Shown: piece after piece, positions 13,215-33,618 of the stretch
Layout of the letters: each line of letters begins with the position of its first letter
Position numbering within the stretch: position 1 is the stretch's first letter
From: an uncultured Clostridia bacterium
GTDB lineage: Bacteria; Bacillota; Clostridia; Christensenellales; UBA1242
NCBI GenBank assembly: GCA_944349805.1
Contig: CALVNP010000055.1
Location: forward strand, 1,565-65,564
DNA: 64,000 nucleotides
Reading direction: 5' to 3'
Made by a program: the position numbers and the translations under genes
The notes under the pieces: generated by a model
What the model was told of the DNA's origin: nothing
Database searches by the model: none
The model's input: the letters and a program-made list of their open reading frames with translations, nothing else

Positions 13215-13440
13215 ATTTCCTCCTAAACTAGATTATTACTACTAATGCTTGCCTATTCTAGCATTAAAAAGATTTTTTTGCAAGCATTTTGTTTAAAAAA
13301 TTTCAAAAAGATATATAATTTTAGTTGAAAATTAATTATTAGTGTAGTATATTATATTTGTATGCTAGCTATTGGCAGATTTTAAGTTCAAAATTTCAAT
13401 TTTTTGTTTATATATAATTTAAAAAAAGGAATTCACACTG

Positions 13441-13791
13441 TTGACAGTTGAAACTAATAACTATTATGGTAAAATAAGTATATCCGGCGAAGCAATTGCT
13501 GTCGTTGCGGGCTATGCTGCACTAGATTGTTATGGTGTGGTTGATCTTGTATCTAAAAATTTAAGAGATAACATTAAGGAATTAATTAAAAGAAAAAAAT
13601 ACTCTAAAGGTGTTAAAATTACAACTGTAGAAAATAGAATATTTATTGATATATACTGTATTTTAAAATACGGTGTTTCTATTAGTGCCGTTGCTGAAAG
13701 CCTTAAAAAATCTGTCAAATATAGCGTAGAGAATTTTACCGGAATGATTGTGGACACTGTAAATGTACACGTCGTTGGTGTAAGGGTGTAG
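13441..13791 (+). CDS. Asp23/Gls24-family envelope stress protein (YloU homologue)
   Basis: 116 aa with I...AIA.VAG.AAL.CYGVV, typical of Asp23. It lies directly upstream of the DAK2 gene, as yloU-yloV does. The start is TTG. Confidence 0.85.
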   Translation: MTVETNNYYGKISISGEAIAVVAGYAALDCYGVVDLVSKNLRDNIKELIKRKKYSKGVKITTVENRIFIDIYCILKYGVSISAVAESLKKSVKYSVENFTGMIVDTVNVHVVGVRV

Positions 13792-15429: not shown

Positions 15430-15457
15430 AAAATGCGAGTTCAAACTCGCATTTTTA
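15430..15457 (+). terminator. Rho-independent terminator after yloV
   Basis: Stem AAATGCGAGT/ACTCGCATTT followed by a T-run. Confidence 0.8.
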
Positions 15458-15533
15458 TTTTGAAATCGACTAAATGATAGAAAAGAATTGCAAAAAGATA
15501 GTAAATATGATAAACTAGTCAAGTTTAAGGTAT

Positions 15534-15572
15534 GTCCTCTTAGTTAAACGGATATAACAAGCCCCTCCTAAG
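15534..15572 (+). other. attL: 5' half of the host tRNA-Arg(CCT) gene, ending in the 8-bp core CTCCTAAG (15565-15572)
   Basis: GTCCTCT-TA-GTTAAACGGATATAAC-A-AGCCC-CTCCTAAG gives the acceptor 5' strand, D arm, 5' anticodon stem and anticodon loop. tRNA-like sequence stops abruptly after the core. Confidence 0.85.
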
Positions 15573-15655
15573 TATCGCATTGAACACAATAAAAATCGCT
15601 AAATCGCCCGAATTACGCATACTTTCAAACCAAACAAACAACCACAAAACACAAT

Positions 15656-15677
15656 TTGTACCCAAATTGTACCCAAA
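15656..15677 (+). repeat. Tandem 11-bp repeat TTGTACCCAAA x2 (candidate arm-type integrase sites, left end)
   Basis: A perfect tandem duplication lies about 85 bp inside attL. The same motif recurs near attR. Confidence 0.6.
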
Positions 15678-15717
15678 ACAAAAATTAACCCCAATAACAC
15701 AACAAAATCACTCATAT

Positions 15718-15794
15718 GTGGGTATAGCTCAGCTGGATAGAGCGTCCGCCTCCTAAGCGGAAGGTCTGCAGTTCAAATCTGCATACTCACACCA
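15718..15794 (+). tRNA. Element-borne tRNA-Arg (anticodon CCT), complete
   Basis: GTGGGTA-TA-GCTC-AGCTGGATA-GAGC-G-TCCGC-CTCCTAA-GCGGA-AGGTC-TGCAG-TTCAAAT-CTGCA-TACTCAC-A-CCA. 77 nt with a canonical cloverleaf and one G-U pair in the acceptor stem. Confidence 0.92.
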
Positions 15795-15798
15795 ATTT

Positions 15799-15822
15799 AA
15801 CATCCCCAATGGGGTGTTTTTT
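15799..15822 (+). terminator. Terminator after the element tRNA
   Basis: Stem ACATCCCC/GGGGTGT followed by T6. Confidence 0.7.
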
Positions 15823-15871
15823 ATAAAATATGATTTTAATCAAAATTGATTTATTTTTTTTATAAAAATGG

Positions 15872-15900
15872 TTGACAAATGAAAAATATTAATTTATAAT
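15872..15900 (+). promoter_or_regulatory. Consensus SigA promoter upstream of the XRE/ImmA pair
   Basis: TTGACA, exactly 17 nt, then TATAAT. It lies 26 nt upstream of the XRE start codon region. Confidence 0.7.
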
Positions 15901-15925
15901 GTAGGCATGATAAAGGAGAAAAATT

Positions 15926-16288
15926 ATGAAATATACACCTTTTGGAGAATTTTATAAAATACTTCGTATAAAAAATCATGAGAACTTAAATGACGCTAGT
16001 AATCTTTTAGATGTGTCACCAGCTTTTATTTCATCTGTAGAGTGTGGTAAAAGACCTGTTCCTGATGATTGGTATAATATTTTATGTAAACACTATTCTT
16101 TATCACAAACAGAACAGTCACAATTAAAAGACGCCATAGACGCATCTCAAACTATTGTCAAGTTGGGGTTACTTAATGCATCTCTTCAGCAAAGAAAAGT
16201 TGCTGTAGCATTTCAGCGATCATTTGATAATTTAAATGAAGAGGTAGCAAATGAATTATTAAAAATCCTTAATAAGGTTAAAAAGTAG
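15926..16288 (+). CDS. XRE-family helix-turn-helix regulator (ImmR/CapH-like)
   Basis: 120 aa. The HTH is LNDASNLLDVSPAFISSVECGKRPVP. RBS AAGGAG. Its stop overlaps the start of the downstream metallopeptidase gene (TAGTG). Confidence 0.8.
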   Translation: MKYTPFGEFYKILRIKNHENLNDASNLLDVSPAFISSVECGKRPVPDDWYNILCKHYSLSQTEQSQLKDAIDASQTIVKLGLLNASLQQRKVAVAFQRSFDNLNEEVANELLKILNKVKK

Positions 16289-16812
16289 TGGATTATAAAA
16301 CATATCCAATTAAACGACAATCATTGAGAGAAATTGCGTCTATATTAAGAAAAATATTTGGCTGTAAAAATAAGTATAAATTTAATGTTGTGGATTCTTT
16401 TGAAAGAATACATTCTTTATTCTCCAATATTTATACGGAAGTAGTTGAAGATGAAGAATTAGAAAGAAATATTCCAGCAAGATGTATTCCAGATTTTGCA
16501 AATAATGAATATTTGATACAAGTTAAAAATTCAGTTTATGAGGGTGCTTGCGATGAAATTGGAGGATATCGAGCTCACATTCTACACGAAATATGTCATG
16601 CCATACTTTGTATTTTAGGTTTCGTTCCAATTATGGATAGACAGTACAAAAATAATGAAATTAAATGTTATGAAAGCATGGAATGGCAGGCAAAAGCTTT
16701 GTGTGGAGAAATTCTAATGCCATATAATGAAACTCAAAATTTAAGTACTGAAGAAATTATGAGATTTTGTAAAGTTTCTAGAGATAGTGCAGAAAAAAGA
16801 AAAACTTATTAG
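16288..16812 (+). CDS. ImmA/IrrE-family zinc metallopeptidase (ImmA/CapP-like)
   Basis: 174 aa with HEXXH motif HEICH within AHILHEICHAIL. It is translationally coupled to the upstream XRE gene, the classic repressor/anti-repressor protease arrangement. Confidence 0.75.
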   Translation: MDYKTYPIKRQSLREIASILRKIFGCKNKYKFNVVDSFERIHSLFSNIYTEVVEDEELERNIPARCIPDFANNEYLIQVKNSVYEGACDEIGGYRAHILHEICHAILCILGFVPIMDRQYKNNEIKCYESMEWQAKALCGEILMPYNETQNLSTEEIMRFCKVSRDSAEKRKTY

Positions 16813-16944
16813 TTGATTTCAGGTATTACCTGTTTTCATAAAAAAAAGAACAAGTTCGCACCTTGTTCTAAAACGGATAAGGCTCCGTAATGCCGTTTGA
16901 AATATGTTCTAATTTCGTAACAATAATATTATAACATATTTTGT

Positions 16945-16976
16945 ATCGGTATGCAAGTCCTTGCGCCGATTTTTTT
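16945..16976 (+). terminator. Rho-independent terminator after the XRE/ImmA operon
   Basis: Hairpin ATCGG..GCAAG-TC-CTTGC..CCGAT followed by T6. Confidence 0.65.
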
Positions 16977-17018
16977 AAATTTACTAAAAAAATCGAGACT
17001 ACTTCAAGGAGGTGTTAA

Positions 17019-17237
17019 ATGGGAACACTGTACACACTTATTACCGGTATGAGTATAGTAGGTATCAAGGCATTAGATATATTCCTATCTTTTATATTTG
17101 ATTGCTTGTCATTTACTATTGCTTGGAAGATTGGTGGACTAGGTACGACTTCAAAAATGCGTGGCTTTTTACACTGGTCTAGTAGAATTGGTATATATAT
17201 TTTATTAGTAATCACAACAAAAAATATAATTTTATAG
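17019..17237 (+). CDS. Small 2-3 TM membrane protein, first gene of the CBASS-like operon
   Basis: 72 aa behind the very strong RBS AAGGAGGTG with 5-nt spacing. It is hydrophobic. There is only a faint resemblance to the N-terminal part of phage_holin_4-type holins. Confidence 0.5.
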   Translation: MGTLYTLITGMSIVGIKALDIFLSFIFDCLSFTIAWKIGGLGTTSKMRGFLHWSSRIGIYILLVITTKNIIL

Positions 17238-17243
17238 GAGACA

Positions 17244-18485
17244 ATGTTTATGGATAAATTTAAAAAAGAAGAACTAATGAATAAAATTGCGCATGCACTG
17301 GATATCACTCCTCAAATTTATAACGAATCGATAAGTGCTGTTCGTGGATTAAGTGCTTATATAAAAAATCAAATTAAAAATGTTGAGATTTATAAACAGG
17401 GTTCGTTTAAATTGGGCACAATAGTTAGACCATATTACAAAGATAAAGACGGCGAATTTGATATTGACTTAGTAGTACAATTTCAAGCGAGCAAAAATAA
17501 TATAAAACCTTCAACAATAAAACAAGCATTAAGATCATGTTTATCTTCTCAAAATTACAGGAACTTATTAGAAGAAGAAAAAAGAAGATGCTGGACTTTA
17601 CACTATCCTTCTAATACGTGTTCATTCCATGTTGATTTATTGCCATGTGTTGATGAATCATCAGAAGTTAAAAGCTCTATTGCTCCTGTACAATATAGAA
17701 ATACCTCTATTGCAATAACTGAAATTGAAGATAAAAAAAACAAACCTTATAATTATAAATGGATGACCAGTAATCCTAAAGGCTATGCTGAGTGGTTTGA
17801 TGATATCAATCAACGTGTTTATGGAGAAATAAAAAAACAAGATAGGCTCAGAGTTTTGAACGAGAATATAACAATGTTTGATTCTATTGATTCTGTTTCT
17901 GATGAATATACTAGAACTCCTTTGCAACAAGTAATACAAATATTAAAAAGACATCGTGATGTTATGTATTGCAACGATAGCGACAATGCTCCAATCTCTA
18001 TTATTATAACTACATTGGTTGGTAAGATTGTTGAAGAAAATCCAAAAGTATACAATACCACATATGATTTATTAAATTCTGTTATCGAAGGCCTAAATTT
18101 TTATTCTCAACTAACAATTGGTGGTATAACAACAGATTTTAGTGAGGATTTTAAGACCAAAAAATTAATTACTAAAAATATGCAAAACGGTAAACCTTAT
18201 TGGTGTATAAAAAATCCAGCAAATTCTCAAGAAAATTTAGCAAACAAATGGAATGAAAATCCAGAAAAAGCAACTGAATTTTTTAAATGGGTTCGTCAAG
18301 TAAAAAGTGATTTGATAGATATATTAGACTTTGAGCCAGAACAAATTAAGCAAAAATTAAAGTACTGTTTAGGAGAACGAATTAGTAACCAGGTTTTATA
18401 TGATTTTAATTTCAATAACATAGATAGTTCTAAATCACGCACATTAAATTTTAGTGATAGTACTCCTAAACCATATAGATGGTAG
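17244..18485 (+). CDS. CD-NTase / SMODS-family nucleotidyltransferase (CBASS cyclase candidate)
   Basis: Pol-beta-type NTase motifs QGSFKLGT...(13)...EFDIDLVV, with the third acidic residue in FHVDLLPC. The downstream LKRHRD and SIIITTL helices are typical of cGAS/DncV-like enzymes. RBS AGGAG. The second ATG at 17250 is better spaced from it. Confidence 0.7.
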   Translation: MFMDKFKKEELMNKIAHALDITPQIYNESISAVRGLSAYIKNQIKNVEIYKQGSFKLGTIVRPYYKDKDGEFDIDLVVQFQASKNNIKPSTIKQALRSCLSSQNYRNLLEEEKRRCWTLHYPSNTCSFHVDLLPCVDESSEVKSSIAPVQYRNTSIAITEIEDKKNKPYNYKWMTSNPKGYAEWFDDINQRVYGEIKKQDRLRVLNENITMFDSIDSVSDEYTRTPLQQVIQILKRHRDVMYCNDSDNAPISIIITTLVGKIVEENPKVYNTTYDLLNSVIEGLNFYSQLTIGGITTDFSEDFKTKKLITKNMQNGKPYWCIKNPANSQENLANKWNENPEKATEFFKWVRQVKSDLIDILDFEPEQIKQKLKYCLGERISNQVLYDFNFNNIDSSKSRTLNFSDSTPKPYRW

Positions 18486-18489
18486 CCTT

Positions 18490-19170
18490 ATGGATTTTGA
18501 TTTTTTTAGAGATGGGCTCGTATTATTTGATGAATATCAATTAACAAAGTTTGACAAATTTGAAACAATCTCTGGGATATACAACTTAGATGTGATAGTT
18601 AAAGATAAAGTTTATCAAGGGAAATTTGCAGTAATTATAAATATTGAAAATACAAAAAATTTTATTCCAGAAGTTTATTTACCAAATCTTTCTTTACCTT
18701 ACAAATTCGAGCATGTATACAAAGACAAAAACAATTTATGCTGTTTAGGATTAAACTATGAAATTGAGCTAACTTGGGGAGAAAAACGTAACTTTTATAA
18801 TTTTTTAACAAAGATCTTAGATCCTTTCTTAGTAAATTATTTAGAATACTGCCAAACTAAAAATTATATAAACGGTGATAGACCTCATGCAAAAGAAGGA
18901 TTAATTGAGTACTACTCTCAATTTTTTCCTAATGAAAACCACAATAAAATAATTCCTATTTTATTATATTGTTATCATAAAATTTCAAGAAACGAATTTG
19001 CAAAAGGTAATAACTTGTGCCCTTGTGGCAGCGGTAAAAATATTAGGCATTGTATTCATCAACAGAAAATTAGAGAATTTATTAATAATGCATTAAATAA
19101 TGCTTACTTAAAAAATGCGTTTCTAAACGATATGAAAAATTATATAGGAGACAAAAATGAGCAAAGGTAA
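18490..19170 (+). CDS. E2/UBC-like protein with C-terminal SEC-C zinc motif (Cap2-short-like candidate)
   Basis: The sequence shows a UBC-like layout. The beta-meander is GKFAVIINIENTKNFIPEVYLP. The catalytic-loop-like segment is EHVYKDKNNLCCLGL (H75, C84/C85). A helix TWGEKRNFYNFLTKILDPFL follows. The C-terminal CPCGSGKNIRHC is a SEC-C motif. The start is uncertain (ATG 18490 or GTG 18454). Confidence 0.5.
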   Translation: MDFDFFRDGLVLFDEYQLTKFDKFETISGIYNLDVIVKDKVYQGKFAVIINIENTKNFIPEVYLPNLSLPYKFEHVYKDKNNLCCLGLNYEIELTWGEKRNFYNFLTKILDPFLVNYLEYCQTKNYINGDRPHAKEGLIEYYSQFFPNENHNKIIPILLYCYHKISRNEFAKGNNLCPCGSGKNIRHCIHQQKIREFINNALNNAYLKNAFLNDMKNYIGDKNEQR

Positions 19171-20296
19171 AAATATTAACAAAGAAACAAGAAACTATTC
19201 AAAAGAAACAATAGCTTTACTTTATGGAAAAACTGCAGGTCATTGTACAATTTGTAATCGACCTTTGCAGTTTGACAATTACTCCCATAGTGATGTAAAC
19301 ATTTCAGAAAAAGCACACATTAAACCTTTTAGCGAATTAGGACCTCGCTCTTCAACTGAAGTTTTAACCACAGAAGAAAAAAACGGTTATGATAATTTAA
19401 TTTTGCTCTGTGGAGCATGTCATTCTACTATCGATAAAAAAGTTTTAGAAGGTGTATATACTGTAGACTGGCTGAAAGAGGAAAAAATACGAAAAGAAAA
19501 ACAAATACGCGAAGTGATGAAGTGTTTAACTCCAAAAGAAATATATTGCTTAAAGTTATTTAGCCCGATAGCTGATTCAAATTTTGATTATGATGATAAT
19601 TTGTTAAAAAGATTGTGCTACAAAAATGGTTTTCATGTAAATGAAACTTTAATTGATTTAGGAGATAATCTTAATATTGAAAATAAAAAAATAAATTTAA
19701 CTGTATTCAATCAACAAATAAAATCTAAAGTGAAATTATTAAATAATAATGGAGAAAATAATGAACTTTGTATATTTGCACTTGGACCACAATATTTGTT
19801 AATAAAATTAGGTTATGAATTATCCGATAAAATAGATGCACATATTTTTACAAAACATAGAAATGGATGGATTTATGATAATATCAATGAAAAGAAAAAT
19901 TACTTTTCTATAATTCGTCCTGTGAAAATTGAAAAAAATAACCAAGTGTCTATAATTGTTTCATCTAGCGCAGAAGTAAATCACGATAGAGTATATCATT
20001 GTTTAGGTAAAAATATAGATATCTGGGAATTAAAGGCAAATAATATAGGTATTGATAATATAAATTCAATAGAAGAAATAGTACAGTTTTCAATTCAATG
20101 TGTTACTATTATTGATAATATTGGCACTATATATGGTAAGGATAAAATAATTAATTTATTTCCTGCTATGTGTAATTCTTTGGCTGTTAAATTTGGACAA
20201 TCAATATTTCATAAAAGCCATAATAAAATTTTGATATATGATACTATTAAAGATAAAACAGGGGAAATAATAGAAAAACCCATTTTAAAAATTTAA
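19157..20296 (+). CDS. HNH endonuclease fused to a SAVED sensor domain (Cap5-like CBASS effector)
   Basis: The N-terminal HNH is CTICNRPL...EKAHIKPFS...NLILLCGACHSTID. The C-terminal ~230 aa contains two CARF-like repeats (ELCIFALGPQYLLIKLGYELSD and IINLFPAMCNSLAVKFGQSI) as in SAVED. RBS AGGAG. It overlaps the previous gene by 14 nt. Confidence 0.7.
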   Translation: MSKGKNINKETRNYSKETIALLYGKTAGHCTICNRPLQFDNYSHSDVNISEKAHIKPFSELGPRSSTEVLTTEEKNGYDNLILLCGACHSTIDKKVLEGVYTVDWLKEEKIRKEKQIREVMKCLTPKEIYCLKLFSPIADSNFDYDDNLLKRLCYKNGFHVNETLIDLGDNLNIENKKINLTVFNQQIKSKVKLLNNNGENNELCIFALGPQYLLIKLGYELSDKIDAHIFTKHRNGWIYDNINEKKNYFSIIRPVKIEKNNQVSIIVSSSAEVNHDRVYHCLGKNIDIWELKANNIGIDNINSIEEIVQFSIQCVTIIDNIGTIYGKDKIINLFPAMCNSLAVKFGQSIFHKSHNKILIYDTIKDKTGEIIEKPILKI

Positions 20297-20337
20297 AAAA
20301 TATCCACCACCAATAAATTTGGTAGTGGATTTTTTTA
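20296..20337. terminator. Bidirectional terminator between the Cap5-like gene and the integrase gene
   Basis: A 12-bp stem ATCCACCACCAA/TTGGTAGTGGAT with one mismatch, with an A-run on one side and a T-run on the other. Confidence 0.75.
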
Positions 20338-21729
20338 TCCAAAAATTTTATTGATTTTTTCTGAGGCGTGGATGTCGCTATTTTGCAAAAAGTGAGAATA
20401 AAAGTCGCTTGTCGTGCTTGCTCTGGCGTGGCCTGCACGCGTTGAAACCGTCTTCATATCAACTCCAGCATTGAGTTGCAATGTGATATTGGTATGGCGC
20501 AGCGAGTGTAGTGTAACCTTAGGCAAACCCGCTTTATTCAAAATCTTATGTAGCCAAACTATGTATAGCCCATGTGATATTGGCTCACCAGAATCTGTTG
20601 AGAACAATCTATCAATCGTTTCCCATCTATCGCCAAGATATGACTTATGTTCTTGCCACCAAGTTTGGTATTCCTTTAAATATGTGATCAAGTTCTCTGG
20701 CATTGAGATCGTTCTTTTGGACGTTTCTGTCTTTGGCTCTTTTGTGAATATCCCAAAACCAGGTAATTCTTGCACTGAGCGGCATATTCTCATTGTGCCA
20801 TTTTCAAAGTCAATATCTTTCCACTCAAGGCCACCAAGTTCACCGCGTCTAAGCCCCATATACAAAATTGTTAAAATTGCAATGCGCCAACGCGGATTTA
20901 TTTCTTCTTCTCGCAAATAGCGTTCCAATTCAATAGCCTCTTTATCATTAAGGATTTTTATTTCCTTTTTATATCCCTGTATAGGAGCAATGTATTCTTG
21001 GGATGCAAAATTGTGTTCAATTAAGCCTTGACGCTTTGCACTCGCGAGTATTGTCGCAAGCGTGCGCTTTAGCTTTAATATTGTTTCTTTTGCATATGGA
21101 TGACTATCTGTTTGAATTTTGAAATAATCATCAAATTTGAGATTTAAAATTTCACATAACTTTTGTGCATTTGAAACTAATATGCCATGGCCTGAAAGTG
21201 CTGAAAAGTATGTTGACCTAGAAAAGTCGTTTTCTCGCAGTTTCTTGCACAAATCTACCGAATGCGATCTTACAAATAGTTGTAAATCTTTAATAAGGAA
21301 CGCTCGTTCCATTTGCACTTTATGGCTGCAAAGCTTGTCCAAATATCCTTGTACTGTTATTGGCCTGATGTCTGCAAGTTTGATGTTCCCAAAGTATTCT
21401 TCAAACTTTCGCAGTGCATCTCTGCCTTTAATAAAGTAGTTGACTGAACGCGTCATTTTAATCGTTTCAAGCCACTTGTATGCATATTCCATAAAGGTGA
21501 TAGAATCGTCAACCATAATGTCGCCATTCAGTTGCTTTCTAAACTTGTCTTCAAATTCAATTTCAAGGCGTTTAAGTTCCTTTTCACATTGTCTCTCAGT
21601 CAGTTCTGCAGGCTTGCGCCATGTCATAACCTTAGCCTCAAATTTACCTGTTCGCAAGTTTTTTGCTTTGACCTGTATGCGATAAGATATATCACCATTT
21701 TGCAAAACATTCTTTTTTATGCATCCCAT
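20335..21729 (-). CDS. Tyrosine site-specific integrase
   Basis: 464 aa. Box I is LYMGLRRGELGGLEWKDI. Box II is LHSLRHTNIT...AGHARASTTSDFYSH, giving the R..HxxR..Y catalytic set. The N-terminal arm-binding-type domain is GDISYRIQVK. RBS AGGAGG. Confidence 0.92.
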   Translation of the reverse strand: MGCIKKNVLQNGDISYRIQVKAKNLRTGKFEAKVMTWRKPAELTERQCEKELKRLEIEFEDKFRKQLNGDIMVDDSITFMEYAYKWLETIKMTRSVNYFIKGRDALRKFEEYFGNIKLADIRPITVQGYLDKLCSHKVQMERAFLIKDLQLFVRSHSVDLCKKLRENDFSRSTYFSALSGHGILVSNAQKLCEILNLKFDDYFKIQTDSHPYAKETILKLKRTLATILASAKRQGLIEHNFASQEYIAPIQGYKKEIKILNDKEAIELERYLREEEINPRWRIAILTILYMGLRRGELGGLEWKDIDFENGTMRICRSVQELPGFGIFTKEPKTETSKRTISMPENLITYLKEYQTWWQEHKSYLGDRWETIDRLFSTDSGEPISHGLYIVWLHKILNKAGLPKVTLHSLRHTNITLQLNAGVDMKTVSTRAGHARASTTSDFYSHFLQNSDIHASEKINKIFG

Positions 21730-21740
21730 AATTGCACCTC

Positions 21741-21959
21741 CTAATTTATTTTTATTTGTTCCATTGGTAATGCGTATTCTTTACTTTGAAGGAAAGCAAG
21801 TAGTGAATCGAAGTCCACCATAACTTTACTTCCTGTTTTTACTGAACGAATTTTCTCGTTGTATGCAAGCATCCTAATGAAGTAAGCAGTGATACTAGAA
21901 TCAGGATCTTCATGCTTAATCATTTTTACAGCCTCGTTTATTGTTCTTATTCTTGTCAT
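21741..21959 (-). CDS. Small Xis-like / excisionase-type DNA-binding protein
   Basis: 72 aa (MTRIRTINEAVKMIK...ITAYFIRMLAYNEKI...) lying immediately upstream of int in the same direction. RBS GGAGG lies 6 nt before ATG 21959. The longer 120-aa ORF-track form is rejected. Confidence 0.6.
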   Translation of the reverse strand: MTRIRTINEAVKMIKHEDPDSSITAYFIRMLAYNEKIRSVKTGSKVMVDFDSLLAFLQSKEYALPMEQIKIN

Positions 21960-22072
21960 TGAAACCTCCTCGTGCTGTCCTTGACTGGAGCTTTTTGGTA
22001 GCAGTGATGTTACCTCTAAATTTATTAAAAGTCCAGACAATTCGCAGCTAATCTTAAAACTTATTTCTAAAT

Positions 22073-22106
22073 AGCGCGGCATTTGCCCTAAACAGCGCGG
22101 CATTTG
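22073..22106. promoter_or_regulatory. Direct repeat AGCGCGGCATTTG x2, spaced 21 bp start to start (candidate operator of the xis-int promoter)
   Basis: Two perfect 13-bp GC-rich copies (22073-22085 and 22094-22106) sit in an AT-rich region about 115-150 bp upstream of the xis-like start. Confidence 0.5.
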
Positions 22107-22171
22107 TGCAGAAACACTTTTCTTGAATAAATTATCGTCTTTGATAAAACATCGCCACAGAGCGCAAATAT

Positions 22172-22235
22172 TTGATTTCTTTTGAATTTTGATTTTATTT
22201 GATTATTTTTTGATTTATTTTTGATTTTTTATCAA
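22172..22235. repeat. Helically phased TTGATTT repeats, 6 direct copies plus an inverted copy
   Basis: TTGAT/TTGAA motifs start at 22172, 22182, 22189, 22199, 22210 and 22221 (spacings 10, 7, 10, 11, 11). An inverted ATCAA lies at 22231. The block sits between the rep-like and xis-like genes. Confidence 0.6.
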
Positions 22236-22311
22236 CGAAAATCCATATATTAAAACATCAAAAACTTAAGAATTGCCTTATATTTAGGGCAATTTGCCAA
22301 GCTAACAACTA

Positions 22312-23088
22312 TTATTTTTTTGATTTTTGATTTCGCGAACTTTTGTGTGAAAGCCCGCGTCCGCTCACAAGCCTAATCCCGTAGAGATTTAGAGCCCCTC
22401 CCTCAGAAAGTGGTGGAAGTTCACTTATCATTTCAGTTAACACTTCCTTCACAACATTTTCAAAAGGATTATTTGGTCTGCGCTGTAATTCATCTGCTGA
22501 TGGTACAGTAAGAAGAATTAACTTGTCCGATACACTATCAGTTTTTGAATCTTTAAAATGCATATCAAAAGCATATTCACTTATTAGCGGTTTAATCTTT
22601 TGCTTTAATTTTAAAACAAACAAGTTCCCATCCAGATCCTTCACGCGCGCGTTTCTAGAAATAATTTTAATTTTATTTTTATAATATCTCACTATTACAG
22701 GTACTGCTTGTCCGGCTGGTAGGCAAAGAATGTCTTGTCTATCATCAGGTGTCAGCATTGGGCTACCGTCCAAACCCCAAAAAAGAATCTCAGAATTTAT
22801 GTAAATGTAAAGGCGGTTGTTGTTTTCTAAATGCCTTTTTATTATTCCTTTTTCTTCTAAGCCAACAAGAATTCTGCGAGTTTGGCGCTCCTTTCTTCTT
22901 AGGATAGGTAGGTCATCAAGCATCTTTTTGTATGTAATCCAACAATACTTCCTCCTGTTAATGAATTTTGTAACAGCGTTGCCGCTATCAAAGAACTTGA
23001 TTAAATAATCAAGTAGCAATGCATCTTGCATTGTAAGTCCAAGTCCGACCATAGTTTTTTGATCAAAGTCGAAAATGTATTCTCTCAT
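22312..23088 (-). CDS. Winged-helix replication-initiator / replisome-organizer-like protein
   Basis: 258 aa. The N-terminal ~100 aa (LTMQDALLLDYLIKF...WITYKKMLDDLPIL..KERQTRRILVGLEEKGIIKR) looks like a DnaD/replisome-organizer-type wHTH. It has a basic C-terminal tail and is flanked on both sides by repeat fields. RBS AGGAGG. Confidence 0.45.
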   Translation of the reverse strand: MREYIFDFDQKTMVGLGLTMQDALLLDYLIKFFDSGNAVTKFINRRKYCWITYKKMLDDLPILRRKERQTRRILVGLEEKGIIKRHLENNNRLYIYINSEILFWGLDGSPMLTPDDRQDILCLPAGQAVPVIVRYYKNKIKIISRNARVKDLDGNLFVLKLKQKIKPLISEYAFDMHFKDSKTDSVSDKLILLTVPSADELQRRPNNPFENVVKEVLTEMISELPPLSEGGALNLYGIRLVSGRGLSHKSSRNQKSKK

Positions 23089-23510
23089 AATATCCTCCTA
23101 ATTAAATTTTTTTGCCACGCAATAGGTTGATCAGGTCTATCACGAAGCATATATTTTAACGAGCTCTCGAGCACTCGATAAAACCAAATTGAAATGTGCC
23201 TACATATATAAGGACTAAGAAAGGCAAAAGTCCCCTAGCAATGTGCCAAAAATTTTCATCCTCCTATATATAAGGACAGAAAAAGTTAAATCACCACTAG
23301 TAAAGCGCCAAGTTTTTTATAAAACAAAAAAAGACCGCTAAACTAATAGCAGTCTCTTTTGACCTTCCTCTTATATTATACGGCTCGGCACAGACATAGC
23401 GTAATCCGGTCGTTCACTTTTCATAATCTTTTCGTGACTTTTTTTGAATTATCGCAAAATAACACACCTACAAAAGAACAAAATTTAATCCTGTTTAATA
23501 AATAATTTGC

Positions 23511-23940
23511 TGTCACAAGTGTCATATCCGTCACTAAAAAATAAACTTACATAATAAAAAACGTTGTCATCCTTGTCACATCCGTCACAAGAAAAATGAC
23601 AGAAATGACAAATGACATTAAAATTCGTTTATATAGGAATTAGTGACACTTATGACAACGATGACAAGGATTTTAATATAAAACAGTGACACTTGTGACG
23701 CTTGTGACAGGTAATTTTTATATAAAAACATTTGTCCTATTTGTCCTTTGTCCACAAAATAATGGACAGAAAGACAAAAGGCAAATAGATTCGTTTAAAA
23801 GGACATATTGGACAAACAGGACAAATAGACAAATAAATTTTTTATTTTTTACCGAATCTCACGCGTACGCGCACGTAAAATAATTAGTGTTTTAGTGTCT
23901 TTAGTGTCAGAAATTACACTAATTACACTATTACACTAAA
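23511..23940. repeat. Non-coding iteron field: three short-repeat families in direct and inverted trimer arrays plus one GC-rich direct trimer, mostly at 9-bp periodicity
   Basis: GTCAC/GTCAT trimers lie at 23512-23534 and 23566-23588. Inverted TGAC(A) trimers lie at 23597-23617, 23644-23666 and 23686-23708. TTGTCC x3 lies at 23732-23753. Inverted GGACA arrays lie at 23764-23786 and 23801-23832. ACGCG x3 lies at 23859-23876. TAGTGT x3 lies at 23885-23907. Inverted TACACTA x3 lies at 23915-23938. Confidence 0.9.
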
Positions 23941-24001
23941 TTTGTTTGATCTATATATTAGTAGTAACCCCAAATTTTCCGATAAAAAAAGAACGGGCAG
24001 G

Positions 24002-24382
24002 TTAGTCCGTTCTCTTTTTATTCAATATCATTAATACTATTACACTTATTATTCCTATCAGAAGAATTGACGGAACTACAATTTTAATCCACAATGGCCA
24101 AGAAATAAGCCATCGTTGAAACTCTATAATACCTTGATATATGAATATTCCAATGATAATAAGAATTACAAAAACAGCAATAAAAGCATCTTTTCCATCT
24201 TTTTTATTTGTTATCAAATGAAGTGAGTATAACACACCTACAATCGCATATGCAATCATGCCTATTATTGCAAATACAGTATTCCAAAAATAATTATCTA
24301 AAAAGCCAATGCCGGTTATACTTAAAGAGGAAATCAAAGCAACCAATAAAATTTTATAATAACTAAGAGAATTGTTCTTCAT
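24002..24382 (-). CDS. Four-TM membrane protein, last gene of the R-M operon
   Basis: 126 aa with four hydrophobic helices. The start lies 8 nt after the ASCH gene stop. No recognisable family. Confidence 0.55.
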   Translation of the reverse strand: MKNNSLSYYKILLVALISSLSITGIGFLDNYFWNTVFAIIGMIAYAIVGVLYSLHLITNKKDGKDAFIAVFVILIIIGIFIYQGIIEFQRWLISWPLWIKIVVPSILLIGIISVIVLMILNKKRTD

Positions 24383-24389
24383 ATTTTAC

Positions 24390-24734
24390 CTACACATTAA
24401 CCCAAATTATCGCACCCTTAGGGTGTTTATATTTTATTGGCTTTTCAAATCTTTGAGCGTTAGCTAAGACCCATGCGTATGTATTTTTATAGGGCAATTT
24501 ATTTACATCTTGTATACAATGTTTCATTGATTCTTTTTGAAACATATCCATAGACAAATGGATGGAATCAATTAATTCACAACTACCTACAATTAAACCT
24601 GAGCCGCTTTGAATCAAAAAAATTTTACCTCTAATTTTTGTGTTAGAACCTCTAATTTCCCAAGTTTTCTTTCTGTTAAGGATATAATCAACCCACGGTT
24701 GTTTTATAATTAAAGCTTTCATATAATTCGCCAA
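24390..24734 (-). CDS. ASCH-domain (PUA-like fold) protein
   Basis: ALIIKQPWVDYILNRKKTWEIRGSNTKIRGKIFL is the characteristic ASCH N-terminal strand pattern. The gene abuts the endonuclease stop codon. The start is TTG 24734 or ATG 24722. Confidence 0.65.
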   Translation of the reverse strand: MANYMKALIIKQPWVDYILNRKKTWEIRGSNTKIRGKIFLIQSGSGLIVGSCELIDSIHLSMDMFQKESMKHCIQDVNKLPYKNTYAWVLANAQRFEKPIKYKHPKGAIIWVNV

Positions 24735-25502
24735 CTATTTGTAGATTTTAATAGTTCCATATGTAAGAAGTTTTTGTAAAATAATTCTAAATCCCGTTCC
24801 ATGATCATGCGTTTTACCTTTGTTTTTACCAGAAGCATAGACACCAATTCTAATATCAATAAATAAATCTCCATTTTCTATGGCTGATAACATTTTTTCA
24901 ATTGTTAACCCTTCTAAAATGACCATCTGTTCATATCGAACGAAATGGTAACCACCTTCATCTTTTTCTTCGCCATATAGGATTGCAATTTTATTCAATT
25001 TTTTTGATAATGCATTTTCTAGAACAGAAAAGTCCCAATACACATTTTTCCCTATACTTTCACTTTCTAAAATAACATCGTCAACTGTTCTTTTTACGAC
25101 TAATCTAAGTTTTTTGGAAGCCCGATCTACATTTACTTTAAAGCAGTGGCCACCTCTATGAGAATTAAATTTATTGCCACTAACAGTTGTATTAAGAACC
25201 TTTTTCCCTGAATCTGGTTCTATCACACCATAACTTTCTCTAAGATATGTATTTACCCCTTTGGGGGATGATGGTGATTTAGAAAAAAGCGACATGAGAC
25301 TAGACGTAATTATTCTGTGTGATTTTAATTCAATTCCTTTAAAATCTGCCTCTGGTTTGTTGTCTTCTTTTTTACCAATTAAGTCTTCAAAGGCATTCCC
25401 TAAACACTGGTCTCCATGCCTTTTTGTTTCTATCCATCCCAACTTCTTTATTGAATAGAAAAGGTCAACCAATTCTTGCTCTGCTTGTAAATAATTATCC
25501 AT
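24735..25502 (-). CDS. Type II restriction endonuclease, MvaI/BcnI family
   Basis: GNAFEDLIGKKEDNKPEADFKGIELKS and the C-terminal ...KTHDHGTGFRI....L parallel BcnI (GQILERQFGVQENN...DLGEFELKG and ...GPHDRGPHLRI). ATG 25502 sits behind RBS GAGG. Confidence 0.7.
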   Translation of the reverse strand: MDNYLQAEQELVDLFYSIKKLGWIETKRHGDQCLGNAFEDLIGKKEDNKPEADFKGIELKSHRIITSSLMSLFSKSPSSPKGVNTYLRESYGVIEPDSGKKVLNTTVSGNKFNSHRGGHCFKVNVDRASKKLRLVVKRTVDDVILESESIGKNVYWDFSVLENALSKKLNKIAILYGEEKDEGGYHFVRYEQMVILEGLTIEKMLSAIENGDLFIDIRIGVYASGKNKGKTHDHGTGFRIILQKLLTYGTIKIYK

Positions 25503-25584
25503 ATATACCTCACTATGACCAATTATAGCAAAAAAAATGATGCAACACAAATCTTGCATCATTTTTATTATACTTTTTTAAAAA

Positions 25585-26835
25585 TTATTTAATCCTTTTC
25601 ATTACAACAATATATTCTTTAGTCATTGTTGAAATTTGGCCTCCAACTCTATTAGATGGGGATGCTTTTGAAGGCATACGCTTATTCAAGATATCTCTTA
25701 CATGAGTAACAATATGTTCATATCCTAATTTTTCAAACATTTTATAAGTAATAACATCTAATGGCAATTCAATATTTCTAACTCTACGATTACCAACAAC
25801 ATACACAACATATCCTCCAATTTTAACTGTCTGAGATATCGCCTCAATCGTTTCAAGATAGTCTTTATAAAAAGATATGACAGATCTATATCGGTCTCCA
25901 TTATTATTTAAATCGTATTTCTTTATTTTATCTATAGCATCATCTAATTCTTCTATATTAAAATGATATGCATTTATTTTTCGACCACCCATTAGTTTTG
26001 AATCAACTTGACCAGCATCTGTAAAACCAAGCCATTCATTTGAGAGTCTCGAAAATTGGCCATAGGCTACTGTCGTGTGGCTATCTCCATATGGAGGAGA
26101 TGTTATAATTAAATCAAATTTGTCTTGTAAATGATATTTTTGTATACACATGTTTGAGTTGTCATAAAATAATTTAACATTAGTATTATATTTAACATCC
26201 GCATTTTCTAAAATTTCTATATTTCTATCAACAATTTGTTCAAATAACTTAAATGCGTCAGGATTAAAATTTTCTAGCGATTTTTTTGACATTCTATATA
26301 ATTTAAATTCGCCATTTCTTGTTTCAGAAACACATCTAACCACTTCAGAAAAACACATTTTAAAAAACTTCAACGAAGAATCATCAAAAGATTCAAAAAC
26401 AAATTTTTTAATTTTTGCTAATTCAATAATACTTTGTTCTTTAAACCAAGAATGAAGAATTGAAAAACTAGGTATTTCACTAGGTTCTATATTTAGTATT
26501 TTGTAATTTTCAAACTTTTTAAATCTTTCTTTAATATTTTCTATTACTATAGGTTTTGTTTTTACTTCTGTAATTAACAAAGCCAAAGGATTTAGATCAA
26601 AACCATATGCTTCTTTAGCTCCATATAATTGAGCTTCCGCAATAGTTGTGCCAGATCCAACATAAGGATCTAGAAAAATTGTATCTGGACCTTTCCCATA
26701 TTCTTTTAACATTTCTCTTGCAATTAAAGGCATCATCATTGCTGGATAAGGATGAAGTCCATGCACATATTCTTTCATGCTGTGTTCTTTAAAGTTCCAT
26801 TTTTCATCATATTGTCTCTTATAATTGTTTTTCAT
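25585..26835 (-). CDS. DNA methyltransferase (amino-MTase with SPPY motif; N4-cytosine or N6-adenine)
   Basis: SAM motif I is LDPYVGSGTT near residue 56. Catalytic motif IV is ITSPPYGD near residue 245. The order I...TRD...IV indicates the alpha class. Confidence 0.85.
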   Translation of the reverse strand: MKNNYKRQYDEKWNFKEHSMKEYVHGLHPYPAMMMPLIAREMLKEYGKGPDTIFLDPYVGSGTTIAEAQLYGAKEAYGFDLNPLALLITEVKTKPIVIENIKERFKKFENYKILNIEPSEIPSFSILHSWFKEQSIIELAKIKKFVFESFDDSSLKFFKMCFSEVVRCVSETRNGEFKLYRMSKKSLENFNPDAFKLFEQIVDRNIEILENADVKYNTNVKLFYDNSNMCIQKYHLQDKFDLIITSPPYGDSHTTVAYGQFSRLSNEWLGFTDAGQVDSKLMGGRKINAYHFNIEELDDAIDKIKKYDLNNNGDRYRSVISFYKDYLETIEAISQTVKIGGYVVYVVGNRRVRNIELPLDVITYKMFEKLGYEHIVTHVRDILNKRMPSKASPSNRVGGQISTMTKEYIVVMKRIK

Positions 26836-27028
26836 TTTTACCTCTTATTATTCCTGATTCCACAAATAATTTATATAATTTTTTTCTGTATTTCGTTGAA
26901 GGATTAAATTTTCCTTTTTCCCATCGATTTACGGTTGTTTTAGAGACGTTTAAAATTTGAGCCAAATCATTTTGTGTTAGGAAATTATTTTCACGATATA
27001 CAAATATATTCTTTTGAAAATCAATCAT
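26819..27028 (-). CDS. Controller (C) protein-like XRE HTH regulator of the R-M operon
   Basis: 69 aa starting at ATG 27028 (MIDFQKNIF...LTQNDLAQILNVSKTTVNRWEKGK). It overlaps the MTase start by 17 nt. Confidence 0.7.
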   Translation of the reverse strand: MIDFQKNIFVYRENNFLTQNDLAQILNVSKTTVNRWEKGKFNPSTKYRKKLYKLFVESGIIRGKNEKQL

Positions 27029-27053
27029 TATATTTACCTCAATATATGACATT

Positions 27054-27083
27054 ATTATAACATAAAGTTGACATAAAATCAAC
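27054..27083 (-). promoter_or_regulatory. Promoter with overlapping inverted repeat (C-box-like operator) for the C-M-R operon
   Basis: The minus strand reads TTGATT, 17 nt, TATAAT. The inverted repeat GTTGA-N7-TCAAC (27067-27083) overlaps the -35 element. Confidence 0.5.
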
Positions 27084-27165
27084 ATTTTAAATTTATTTTT
27101 TTTAGAACTACTTGGCTTTTTAATAAAAACGTTTTATAGTGTCACACAACGCAAGGAGGTGTAGT

Positions 27166-27567
27166 GTGAAAGCACGATTTATTTATAAAAAGCCAGATGC
27201 ACGACTTGTGCGCAATGCAATTGATCGTGGAGAAGGTCAAAGAGCCGAGTATGTTGTAGAAAGAACAATTTACCTTCCAAAAGAAAAGTTTATTCATTTT
27301 AGAAGTCACTTGCTGGAAGATAATGATGCGATAATGACCTACAAAAATGAAATGTATGTTGACGAAAACAAAGTGTGGCACGTCTTGATGTTTTGCTCAA
27401 TGATTGCCGATATTATGATTCTTGTTAACAGTGAAGGATTTAATTATGCGCGCTACTGCTCAATAATTTGCAATGGAGGTGAACAAGTTGAAAAACGTTA
27501 TTCGACTCGTCAGAGATATCCTACAAGACCAAAAAATAACTGCAGAAGAACAACTGCAGTTAAATAA
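27166..27567 (+). CDS. Hypothetical protein; the 3' part may be out of frame
   Basis: The GTG start lies 6 nt after the strong RBS AAGGAGG. The last ~30 codons overlap the next ORF in another frame. Confidence 0.45.
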   Translation: MKARFIYKKPDARLVRNAIDRGEGQRAEYVVERTIYLPKEKFIHFRSHLLEDNDAIMTYKNEMYVDENKVWHVLMFCSMIADIMILVNSEGFNYARYCSIICNGGEQVEKRYSTRQRYPTRPKNNCRRTTAVK

Positions 27568-27730
27568 AATTTGTGAACTAGAAGAAAAATTCGTTAAAGA
27601 TTTTTCTAAAGACAAATGGAGAGAATATTTTGATTTAGATGTTGAAAAAGGTCAACTTGTAAACTTACAAATTGACCAAGTGATTAAAATTACATATGAA
27701 GTTTATAAACGACTTTTTATTGGAAAGTAG
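27473..27730 (+). CDS. Hypothetical helical protein (possibly the displaced C-terminal part of the preceding gene)
   Basis: 85 aa with no RBS. It overlaps the upstream ORF by 95 nt in the +1 frame. Confidence 0.4.
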   Translation: MEVNKLKNVIRLVRDILQDQKITAEEQLQLNKICELEEKFVKDFSKDKWREYFDLDVEKGQLVNLQIDQVIKITYEVYKRLFIGK

Positions 27731-27736
27731 CCAAGA

Positions 27737-27786
27737 GTACCCAAAGTCAAAAATTGCCTAAAATTGTACCCAAATAGTGCCCAAGT
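27737..27786 (+). repeat. GTACCCAAA-type repeats (candidate arm-type integrase sites, right end)
   Basis: GTACCCAAA lies at 27737-27745 and TTGTACCCAAA at 27764-27774. Degenerate copies are TTGCCTAAA (27754-27762) and GTGCCCAAG (27778-27786). All have the same orientation as the left-end copies. Confidence 0.6.
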
Positions 27787-27906
27787 TTTAGGTATGCGCA
27801 AGAAAAGATATAAAAATTGATATAGTTTTTGCTTGATTTGAAAGATATTTTGAGCGATATTGCGCAAATAGATATATAAAATGAGAAAAAAGTAAGATTT
27901 TGAGCG

Positions 27907-27950
27907 CTCCTAAGGGCTAGTTAGGGGTTCGATTCCCTTAGGGGACGCCA
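27907..27950 (+). other. attR: 8-bp core CTCCTAAG plus the 3' half of the host tRNA-Arg(CCT) gene
   Basis: CTCCTAAG-GGCT-AGTT-AGGGG-TTCGATT-CCCTT-AGGGGAC-G-CCA. The 3' acceptor strand pairs with GTCCTCT at 15534-15540. Confidence 0.85.
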
Positions 27951-27969
27951 TTTTTTTGTGTTATCTTTG

Positions 27970-27998
27970 TAAGCAATTTTTTGTTGCTTATTTTTTTT
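27970..27998 (+). terminator. Terminator downstream of the tRNA 3' half
   Basis: Stem AAGCAA/TTGCTT followed by T8. Confidence 0.6.
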
Positions 27999-28111
27999 AC
28001 TCAATTTTTAATATTTTGACTTACATTTTTTGTAATTCAATTTTATTTTTGTTTGTTTTTTAAAACATTTTTTTGCGTTTAAAAAGTTGTTTGTTTGTCT
28101 ATATTTGTTGT

Positions 28112-28483
28112 ATGGAAACATTTTTAACTTATTTATATGTCTTTTTGGTGGGTGGACTTATTTGTATGATAGGTCAAATTTTGATTATAAGGACAAAAAT
28201 CACTTCGGCAAGAATTTTGGTTACTTTTGTCCTTGTGGGTGTTGTTTTGGAAGCTGTTGGAGTTTTCGATTACATCTCAGCTTTTGCTAAAGCTGGGGTT
28301 AATGTTCCAATAACGGGTTTTGGAGCTTCTCTTGCAAAGGGGGCAATGGGTGGTGTTAAGGCTATGGGACTTATTGGAGCATTCACTGGTGGACTTGAAG
28401 CTGTTGCTGGTGGAATTGCTGCTGCCGTTGGCTTTGCATTCTTGTTTTCTTTGATTTTTAGAGCACACACAAAAAAGAATTGA
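28112..28483 (+). CDS. spoVAE: Stage V sporulation protein AE (SpoVAEB-type)
   Basis: FLVGGLICMIGQILI..TKITSARILV.FV..GV.LEA.G..D....FA.AG..VPITGFG..LAKG is the SpoVAE signature. The start is placed at ATG 28112. Confidence 0.8.
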   Translation: METFLTYLYVFLVGGLICMIGQILIIRTKITSARILVTFVLVGVVLEAVGVFDYISAFAKAGVNVPITGFGASLAKGAMGGVKAMGLIGAFTGGLEAVAGGIAAAVGFAFLFSLIFRAHTKKN

Positions 28484-28555
28484 AATTTCCTATTGCAAAA
28501 TTAAAATTTTTATGTTAAACTTGCAATGAAGAAAGTTTCTGCAGGGGGGGAGATT

Positions 28556-29758: not shown

Positions 29759-29767
29759 AAAACAAAG

Positions 29768-29799
29768 AATCAACAAAAAGTTATTTGTTGATTTTTTTT
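29768..29799 (+). terminator. Rho-independent terminator
   Basis: Stem AATCAACAAA/TTTGTTGATT followed by T8. Confidence 0.8.
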
Positions 29800-29858
29800 A
29801 ATATGCAATTTTTAAATTTTACTTGATATATTTTACATAAGTTGATAAAATAAGTTTG

Positions 29859-31439: not shown

Positions 31440-31441
31440 TT

Positions 31442-32325: not shown

Positions 32326-32326
32326 T

Positions 32327-33616: not shown

Positions 33617-33618
33617 TA

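Follow-up and report, generated by a model that had tools for sequence, protein, structure and literature searches.

Several actinobacteriophages (Fionnbharth/K4, LeBron/L, Gaia/X and Gordonia CQ2/DL) establish tRNA-dependent lysogeny (Guerrero-Bustamante and Hatfull, mBio 2024, PMC10865867). Recombination by their tyrosine integrases uses an 8-17 bp core within a host tRNA gene, and no functional tRNA remains at attL. A cognate tRNA encoded by the phage complements the loss and is needed both for viable lysogens and for integration-proficient plasmids, the latter seen in the comparison of pCG44 with pCG38. In Fionnbharth, this tRNA lies elsewhere in the genome and has its own demonstrated promoter (PMC10865867). 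Lj965 of Lactobacillus johnsonii is cited in the same paper as a likely tRNA-replacing case outside Actinobacteria, and the passages on Sinorhizobium meliloti in PMC11476347 and PMC12429752 describe phage-related sequences that substitute a host tRNA. We analyzed a 64-kb stretch of contig CALVNP010000055.1 from an uncultured Clostridia bacterium, hereafter called the window, in which a 12.3-kb insert (15573-27906) interrupts a host tRNA-Arg(CCU) gene. We consider it highly probable that the insert is a non-phage island that follows a disrupt-and-replace strategy: it splits the host tRNA gene and carries a replacement for it.

The first-pass annotation of this DNA had described a tRNA-Arg(CCT) gene split into halves at 15534-15572 and 27907-27950, and reading of the sequence at both junctions upheld its coordinates and description. 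The left half, on the plus strand, consists of GTCCTCTTAGTTAAACGGATATAACAAGCCC-CTCCTAAG, after which the sequence passes into unrelated TATCGCATTG. The right half consists of CTCCTAAG-GGCTAGTTAGGGGTTCGATTCCCTTAGGGGACGCCA and is preceded by unrelated sequence ending in ATTTTGAGCG (in a longer stretch, ...GATTTTGAGCG). The core CTCCTAAG, at 15565-15572 in attL, occupies tRNA positions 32-39 in the anticodon loop. This shared block is exactly 8 bp long, as had been claimed, and the bases flanking it differ between the two junctions. A scan of the whole window with ARAGORN returned no tRNA at either junction, in agreement with the earlier statement that the gene is rebuilt at neither. When 15572 was joined to 27915, the same program recognized a 75-nt tRNA-Arg(cct) with a clean cloverleaf; the joined halves had been expected to score as a tRNA. 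Four copies of CTCCTAAG occur in the 64 kb, compared with 0.71 expected, and none of 100 shuffled sequences reached four; three of the copies are the two junctions and the tRNA carried by the island. The attachment sites reconstructed from the junctions are ...GATTTTGAGCG / core CTCCTAAG / TATCGCATTG... for attP (spanning sequence GAGCGCTCCTAAGTATCG) and ...AACAAGCCC / core CTCCTAAG / GGCTAGTT... for attB (spanning sequence AAGCCCCTCCTAAGGGCTAG). The 3' part of the tRNA is not carried by attP, as the sequence that follows the attL core is unrelated to the tRNA.

When metagenomes were searched with the host tRNA's 3' half as query, two contigs (L081 and L082) were retrieved that represent an empty site. 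Both hold an intact tRNA that matches the joined 75-mer base for base: the left half is identical to its nucleotides 1-39, and 51 of 51 positions are identical on the right. The intact gene is preceded by a promoter-like TTGCAA...TATGATATACT and adjoins a FakA/yloV-Asp23 homologue with ~81% DNA identity to 13039-15430 of the window. The proposal that precise excision would restore the host gene is borne out by the in silico join and by these contigs, in which, contrary to what would speak against a split gene, the related tRNA is intact and lies beside FakA/yloV. Exact-protein look-ups with FakA/yloV and with the integrase returned no matching contig, and so no isogenic empty site was obtained by that route.

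The flanks of the empty site were compared over L081:1-470 and L082:1-14670 against 13057-15572 and 27907-49063 of the window. On the far side of the tRNA, these contigs continue into homologues of 37345-49063. The intervening 27951-37345, which encodes SepF, LspA, RluD, trigger factor, ClpP and ClpX, is missing from the equivalent position of L082, so the tRNA marks a synteny breakpoint between the two genomes. We considered whether 27951-37345 could be a second island to the right of the insert and rejected this on account of its gene content, which identifies a break in synteny.

A complete tRNA-Arg(CCT) lies within the island, 145 bp inside the left junction and on the same strand as the target. 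With the Rfam tRNA model it reaches 66.5 bits (E = 6e-13; gathering score 29). Its sequence differs from that of the host gene throughout, including the D arm (GCTCAGCTGGATAGAGC versus GTTAAACGGATATAAC in the host) and the anticodon stem (TCCGC/GCGGA versus AGCCC/GGGCT), and the anticodon loop CTCCTAAG (15750-15757) is identical. ARAGORN found only one other tRNA in the window, a tRNA-Trp(cca) at 7074-7147 on the minus strand. Covariation was assessed in 12 intact element-side tRNAs aligned on the cloverleaf, one of which (L028) is of uncertain origin. All 168 of 168 cells were paired (100%), compared with 81.9% in shuffles, and compensatory changes on both sides were found in 12 of 21 pairs. 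Sliding the alignment as a control reduced pairing to 29-46%. The carried tRNAs thus bear the sequence signature of selection as tRNAs. The host gene is destroyed, but its function is very probably replaced by the carried tRNA, judged from sequence. The insertion had been called truly disruptive; this holds at the level of DNA but not of function, given the complete and different tRNA-Arg(CCT) inside attL and the conservation of this layout.

Between the host promoter and the carried tRNA (15573-15717), no terminator-like site was detected, and a T at position -1 of the carried tRNA is conserved in relatives. We take this T(-1) to be part of the RNase P context; together with the missing terminator, it points to read-through from the host promoter and RNase P processing. 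A conserved TAATAT/TCATAT abutting +1 was considered as a -10 box and rejected because it lies too close. The codon read by this tRNA, AGG, is the second most used Arg codon of the window's host genes, with 86 occurrences among 393 Arg codons.

The layout of the window is conserved. A scan of genome contigs with the integrase, limited to one genome per species, found 449 relatives, of which the 80 best loci were retained. These come from gut and rumen Clostridia metagenome-assembled genomes (MAGs) and from two cultured Pumilibacter species, and nearly all have a tRNA downstream of int on the opposite strand. In 29 of the 37 loci linked to tRNA-Arg, a 5' half that breaks off in the anticodon loop precedes an arm of 116-183 bp with two direct repeats, after which comes an intact tRNA of the same anticodon. 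Twenty of the 29 have the anticodon CCT, four CCG (core CTCCGAC; both Pumilibacter isolates are among them) and five ACG (core CTACGGA). The carried tRNA is always on the strand of the target, 116-183 bp from the core. Only exact-loop matches at this distance were counted, plus L034, which was inspected by eye; the chance of an exact 7-mer within 400 nt is ~2% per locus. An alternative test, in which a candidate 5' half was fused to a synthetic 3' half and submitted to ARAGORN, was dropped as too permissive, since it accepted spurious sites in arms and coding DNA. The anticodon is common to the carried and the split tRNA in 29 of 30 informative relatives, the exception being L014, and in the window.

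The far ends of related islands were examined with a pair-joining scan. In L003 (integrase 70% identical), L019 (38%) and L021 (38%, CCG), fusing the 5' half to a distant 3' half yields a tRNA, and an orphan 3' half is also present at the far end in L033 and L057. Ten orphan 3' halves were found in relatives, and every one begins at the anticodon loop. Five islands are bounded on both sides; these measure 4.3-12.3 kb and have a common int-ORF-rep backbone (ORF, open reading frame). Conservation extends over the P' arm with the tRNA, the int-ORF-rep region and the module at 27150-27710, and the two intervals between them are variable. Two distant members of the family, L061 and L064 (integrase 32%), rebuild the gene: they have a tRNA-Arg(CCG) driven by the host promoter, and a perfect 45-bp duplicate of the 3' half marks the far end. 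The integrase clade has no relative above 40% identity in IMG/VR or above 35% in GenBank phages, and the 5'-half signature was present in no viral relative of the integrase.

There is evidence that related islands have moved between targets. The window, L001 and L002 contain the same island (integrases 98-99% identical, backbone ~95% at the nucleotide level), each time behind a different target tRNA, and L034 and L057 contain an ACG island with 99.7% identity across 9.8 kb, again behind 5' halves that differ. The targets of these islands have only the anticodon loop in common. Islands in L020 (Pumilibacter muris CLA-AA-M08) and L021 (P. intestinalis CLA-AA-M10) have an identical replacement tRNA-Arg(CCG) and nearly identical arms, and they sit behind different target 5' halves (GTGTCCGTAGCGCAACC... 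and GCGCCCGTGGTGGAATT...). The island of L021 (NZ_CALPCH010000003.1, about 97.6-119.0 kb) measures 12.3 kb, and both isolates are carriers amenable to experiment. In L034 (127; 9614-9740), the 5' half beside the island (acceptor GCGACCG) cannot pair with the far orphan 3' half (...GCGACGC-A-CCA); the two come from different tRNA-Arg(ACG) genes, which implies either that islands are nested or that an island mediated a rearrangement between two such genes. The orphan 3' half of L017 (6275; 11646-11720) is identical to the 3' half of the intact tRNA on the island side, and in the related L016 (4129; 11637-11711) the two differ. The L017 pattern may mean that the carried tRNA was recently captured, or converted, from the host allele, and so may be a clue to the origin of replacement tRNAs. 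Both of these contigs end just upstream of the tRNA, with the left junction outside. At L014 (13154-13350, minus strand), a host-promoter-driven 5' half GTTCTCGTAGCTCAGCAGGATAGAGCAACGG-TTTTCTAAG lies upstream of the intact tRNA (c13077-13153).

Islands of this family are also stacked. Two 5' halves in series, each with an arm after it, were found in L001, L009-L013 and L041, and in L002 the split 5' half is preceded by the arm of another island. Locus L010 shows the order most fully. Read in the sense of the tRNA, it begins with the host promoter, a 5' half and a window-type arm with two copies of TTGTACCCAAA; there follow a 5' half identical to nucleotides 1-40 of the island tRNA of the window, a second and different arm, and an intact tRNA. 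This order implies that a newcomer used a resident island's replacement tRNA as its insertion site.

Features of the island are listed in Table 1. The exact 11-mer TTGTACCCAAA occurs three times in the 64 kb, always on the plus strand and only at the ends of the element, with near copies at 27735 and 27775. The sequence ATTTTGAGCG occurs twice in the P arm, at 27849 and 27897. This layout of repeats is as expected for arm-type integrase sites in P' and P arms, and the P' arm is conserved together with the tRNA in L001, L002, L010 and L014.

Table 1. Features of the island and its junctions, with positions numbered along the window
Feature	Position	Strand	Details
Host tRNA-Arg(CCT) 5' half	15534-15572	+	Acceptor 5' strand, D arm, anticodon stem 5' strand, anticodon loop
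P' arm of attachment site	15573-15717	+	Two tandem arm-type repeats TTGTACCCAAA, 15656-15666 and 15667-15677
Element-borne tRNA-Arg(CCT), complete	15718-15794	+	77 nt, CCA encoded; ARAGORN, Rfam, covariation among relatives
Intrinsic-terminator-like hairpin and T run	15799-15818	+	Directly 3' of carried tRNA
XRE-type helix-turn-helix (HTH) protein, cargo slot 1	15926-16288	+	Pfam HTH_31, weak, below curated cut-off
ImmA/IrrE-like metallopeptidase, cargo slot 1	16288-16812	+	Pfam Peptidase_M78, weak, below curated cut-off
Cyclic-oligonucleotide-based anti-phage signaling system (CBASS) operon, cargo slot 1	17244-20296	+	PADLOC, Pfam
CBASS cyclase/CD-NTase	17244-18485	+	PADLOC Cyclase 1e-93; Pfam SMODS/DncV-like
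CBASS E2-like protein	18454-19170	+	PADLOC E2 2e-31
CBASS HNH-SAVED endonuclease effector	19157-20296	+	PADLOC Effector 3.5e-69; Pfam SAVED and HNH
Tyrosine integrase, 464 aa	20335-21729	-	Pfam Phage_integrase PF00589 2e-19, Phage_int_SAM_3; PHROG integrase 3.6e-55
Candidate excisionase/directionality factor, 72 aa	21741-21959	-	Ends just upstream of int
Rep-like protein	22312-23088	-	Weak match to PHROG phrog_428, 5e-8; phage replication-initiation families
GTGACA-type repeat cluster	23494-23745		Inverted repeats I1, I2, I5 and iterated repeats
ASCH-domain protein, cargo slot 2	24390-24734	-	Pfam
MvaI/BcnI-family restriction endonuclease, cargo slot 2	24735-25562	-	Pfam; PADLOC REase_II 5e-61
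Type II DNA methyltransferase, cargo slot 2	25585-26835	-	Pfam; PADLOC MTase_II 1e-107
Small HTH regulator, cargo slot 2	26819-27085	-	Pfam
Conserved backbone module, two ORFs	27139-27730	+	First ORF matches phrog_21303
P arm of attachment site	27735-27906	+	Arm-type repeats 27735-27745 (GAGTACCCAAA), 27764-27774 (TTGTACCCAAA), 27775-27785 (TAGTGCCCAAG)
attR core and host tRNA 3' half	27907-27950	+	Core CTCCTAAG 27907-27914; anticodon stem 3' strand, variable loop, T arm, acceptor 3' strand, G73, CCA

The integrase has N-terminal SAM-like domains and a catalytic domain in which RRGE...HSLRH...Y motifs are visible. It is the sole recombinase of the island and is accompanied by arm repeats, so a serine recombinase or transposon mechanism was rejected. 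A 72-aa ORF occurs directly upstream of int in ~35 related loci (tblastn), and its position makes it a candidate excisionase. A match to TelK_stirrup (E = 0.039), the only one that comparison with Pfam, NCBIfam and PHROG gave for this ORF and the other small backbone ORFs, was dismissed. The Rep-like gene belongs to the backbone conserved in L001-L003; when the protein was compared with plasmids, it gave two weak partial matches to ORFs of Clostridium botulinum phage-plasmids, which are uninformative on the type of replicon. A few hundred bases from this gene, noncoding DNA contains GTGACA/TGTCAC repeats in inverted and direct orientation that resemble iterons. The cluster suggests a possible replication origin and that the excised island may replicate. 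The module at 27139-27730 is conserved in L003, L005, L008, L010, L018 and L022. The int-ORF-rep backbone (20335-24019) has a G+C content of 35.4%, compared with 27.8% (15800-20335) and 28.8% (24019-27150) in the cargo slots and 30-31% in the host flanks, which is consistent with different origins of backbone and cargo.

The operon in cargo slot 1 was assigned to CBASS because a CD-NTase cyclase and a nucleotide-sensing effector are encoded together by adjacent or overlapping genes. The effector is Cap5-like, the genes overlap, and the E2-like protein stands alone, with no E1 or JAB partner detected. Pfam and PHROG scans of the island ORFs found no capsid, terminase, tail, lysis, virion or packaging family. 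Compared with integrative mobilizable elements, the island has int and a candidate Xis, and no relaxase or mobilization family was found among its ORFs. Compared with satellites of the phage-inducible chromosomal island type, it has int, HTH regulators and a Rep-like gene, and no terS, capsid-size or packaging-interference family was detected. By its gene content, the insert is a non-phage integrative island with CBASS and type II restriction-modification cargo.

These observations suggest the following mechanism. The island's own tyrosine integrase would insert it into the anticodon loop of the host tRNA-Arg(CCU) gene, in a reaction between attB and an attP composed of P arm, CTCCTAAG and P' arm; the two sites have no more than 7-8 bp, those of the loop, in common. 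Because the overlap is limited to the loop, a dead 5' half would be left at attL and a dead 3' half at attR. Rather than a 3' segment, the island carries a whole tRNA-Arg(CCU) gene, which takes the place of the host gene after integration and presumably supplies the lost decoding function. The carried tRNA would most likely be transcribed from the host tRNA promoter, or else from an unrecognized promoter within the arm, before maturation by RNase P. Excision by Int, probably with the small conserved ORF upstream of it, would restore the host gene without a scar. With an anticodon loop identical to that of the target, the replacement tRNA is itself a fresh attB; related islands insert there and form nested stacks. 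The two variable slots carry defense genes, here CBASS and type II restriction-modification. Our confidence is high in the anatomy and the conserved strategy, and it is low in the route of expression, the necessity of the tRNA, present-day mobility and the mechanism of transfer.

Several points weigh against this reading. A consensus scan found no sigma-70-like promoter in 15573-15717, and we infer transcription, expression and aminoacylation of the carried tRNA from sequence. In some bacteria, tRNA-Arg(CCU) is dispensable because tRNA-Arg(UCU) can read AGG. Complementation may not be essential here, and other CCU genes would be invisible within 64 kb. In L014, a window-type arm lies behind a tRNA-Arg(UCU)-type 5' half and is followed by a CCU replacement, so matching of the anticodon is not absolute. 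The locus looks like an off-target insertion unmatched by isoacceptor. In its attL, the two mismatched positions both retain the target's bases, and strand exchange is thereby located within CTAAG. The contigs with the empty site derive from a relative (~81% nucleotide identity in the flank) rather than from the same strain, and their tRNA is inverted relative to FakA. The stacks were seen from the 5' side only, as inner 3' halves would lie beyond the fetched flanks. The candidate excisionase has no match among Pfam, NCBIfam or PHROG families. An attP junction was found neither with GAGCGCTCCTAAGTAYCG in viral_contigs nor with AGCGCTCCTAAGTA in all fetched loci; this gives no evidence for a circular form or for current mobility of this copy.

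Other explanations were weighed against the same evidence. The carried tRNA could be kept for another reason, as a decoy or spare against anticodon nucleases or for codon supply, with complementation incidental. Phage tRNAs have been proposed to counter tRNA-cleaving defenses (discussion in PMC10865867), the island is itself a defense island, and the carried tRNA of L014 mismatches the tRNA that was split. Such a role does not account for an anticodon shared with the target in 29 of 30 informative relatives and the window, across CCT, CCG and ACG, or for a tRNA that is always on the target's strand at 116-183 bp from the core. Codon supply is further opposed by the usage of AGG, which is lower in island genes (4.9 per 1000 codons) than in host genes (6.3 per 1000 codons). 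We regard a role of this kind as improbable. The island could also be a decayed prophage, a product of ordinary tRNA-dependent lysogeny that has lost its structural genes. Its strategy is known from phages, and there are PHROG matches for the integrase, replication initiation, a repressor-type HTH and phrog_21303. Decay would, however, have to explain why no capsid, terminase, tail or lysis genes are present, why the five complete relatives are all 4.3-12.3 kb with the same int-ORF-rep backbone, and why the clade is absent above 40% integrase identity from IMG/VR and GenBank phages; we think it distinctly unlikely.

Insertion without compensation, in which tRNA-Arg(CCU) function is lost until excision, as for genes split by skin or SPbeta, would fit the facts that neither junction rebuilds the gene and that excision would restore it. 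It is contradicted by the intact tRNA of the same anticodon 145 bp inside attL, by the linkage to attP and anticodon match conserved in 29 relatives with three anticodons, and by the compensatory evolution of the carried tRNAs, and it seems to us a shade less likely again than decay of a prophage. We give the least credence to a composite origin, that is, a classical island bounded by the tRNA at 15718-15794, with the split tRNA resulting from a separate rearrangement or an assembly error. The integrase does lie in the middle of the interval rather than beside an end, and distant relatives have the tRNA directly after int. Against this, the interval contains no second copy of the 3' part of the 15718-15794 tRNA and no internal CTCCTAAG. 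The arm repeats between the 5' half and the intact tRNA recur beside the 3' half 12 kb away, arm and tRNA travel together into other genomes, and the same architecture is present in many independent assemblies, including those of two cultured Pumilibacter isolates. We therefore prefer disrupt-and-replace integration by a non-phage island.

As to its wider meaning, we lean, by a modest margin, toward the view that the island represents a previously undescribed family of small, non-viral defense islands of gut Clostridia for which disrupt-and-replace integration creates a self-renewing landing pad. If so, every insertion destroys a tRNA-Arg gene at the anticodon loop and puts the island's copy in its place, beside attP and under the host's promoter, and this copy becomes the attB of the next island, which would allow indefinite piling at one locus without loss of decoding. 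Integrase and carried tRNA would have switched together among CCU, CCG and ACG targets, and host tRNA-Arg alleles would be steadily replaced and spread horizontally. Since the carried tRNA replaces the host allele, the islands are a route for horizontal turnover of tRNA genes. The rule that tRNA-targeting elements repair what they cut has a second, apparently widespread exception, outside phages and Actinobacteria. The repeat is only 8 bp and an intact tRNA lies inside the island, so finders of the Islander/TIGER type would miss such elements or misplace their bounds. The islands also account for arrays of tRNA-half pseudogenes beside tRNA-Arg genes in Clostridia MAGs, and reuse of the replacement tRNA as attB provides a simple mechanism for building defense-island hotspots. 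For gut anaerobes that are hard to manipulate, a compact int-attP-tRNA cassette would make a selectable integration tool that supplies its own complementation; mycobacterial integration vectors proposed in PMC10865867 are a parallel.

The island can be placed among described systems as follows. It resembles classical tRNA/tmRNA islands (Williams 2002; Islander, PMC4383910) in its tyrosine integrase, the crossover in the symmetric anticodon stem-loop, the tRNA sublocation typical of one integrase class, and the displaced 3' tRNA fragment that marks the far end. It differs in the overlap of attP with the target, which is limited to 8 bp, in the failure to regenerate the gene and in the 5' fragment that also stays behind. 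Regulated gene-integrity elements (skin in sigK, SPbeta in spsM and A118-type phages in comK) likewise split a host gene that precise excision restores. Their gene is off during integration and excision is developmentally timed, whereas the island in the window supplies a replacement of the same anticodon, and function would be expected to persist. Lj965 and the Sinorhizobium sequences are alike, as far as the passages that cite them go, in that the tRNA is not rebuilt on integration and a cognate tRNA is carried by the element; they differ in being prophages or phage-related, and those passages do not mention attP linkage, anticodon switching or stacking. In the literature searched, whose coverage is incomplete, we found no description of non-phage islands that use disrupt-and-replace integration; this negative therefore carries little weight.

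The closest match is tRNA-dependent lysogeny of the actinobacteriophages. The island has four of its features, namely a tyrosine integrase, an attB in a tRNA gene, a short core and a cognate carried tRNA; it departs from another, a temperate phage, as it measures 12.3 kb, has no virion genes and has no close viral relative. For a further feature, a carried tRNA that complements the loss and that viable integrants need, the conservation and covariation of the carried tRNAs and the use of AGG by host genes give indirect support. Both systems use a tyrosine integrase with arm-type sites and an attB inside a host tRNA gene, and in both the core is too short to rebuild the tRNA (8 bp in Gaia and in the window). 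Both also include a rebuilding mode within the same integrase family (Cain versus Ximenita; here, L061/L064 versus the rest). The differences are that the element described here is a non-phage 12-kb island with defense cargo, with complete relatives down to 4.3 kb, and that its hosts are gut Clostridia and its targets tRNA-Arg(CCU/CCG/ACG). Complementation is experimental in the phages and deduced for the window island. The tRNA of Fionnbharth lies elsewhere in the genome, whereas here it is physically tied to attP, at 116-183 bp, and points the same way as the target. Carried tRNA and target switch together among three Arg anticodons, and the replacement tRNA is reused as attB in nested stacks. 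The principle was already known from phages (2024); what is new here is its use by a non-phage element, with a tRNA that is linked to attP and can be re-targeted.

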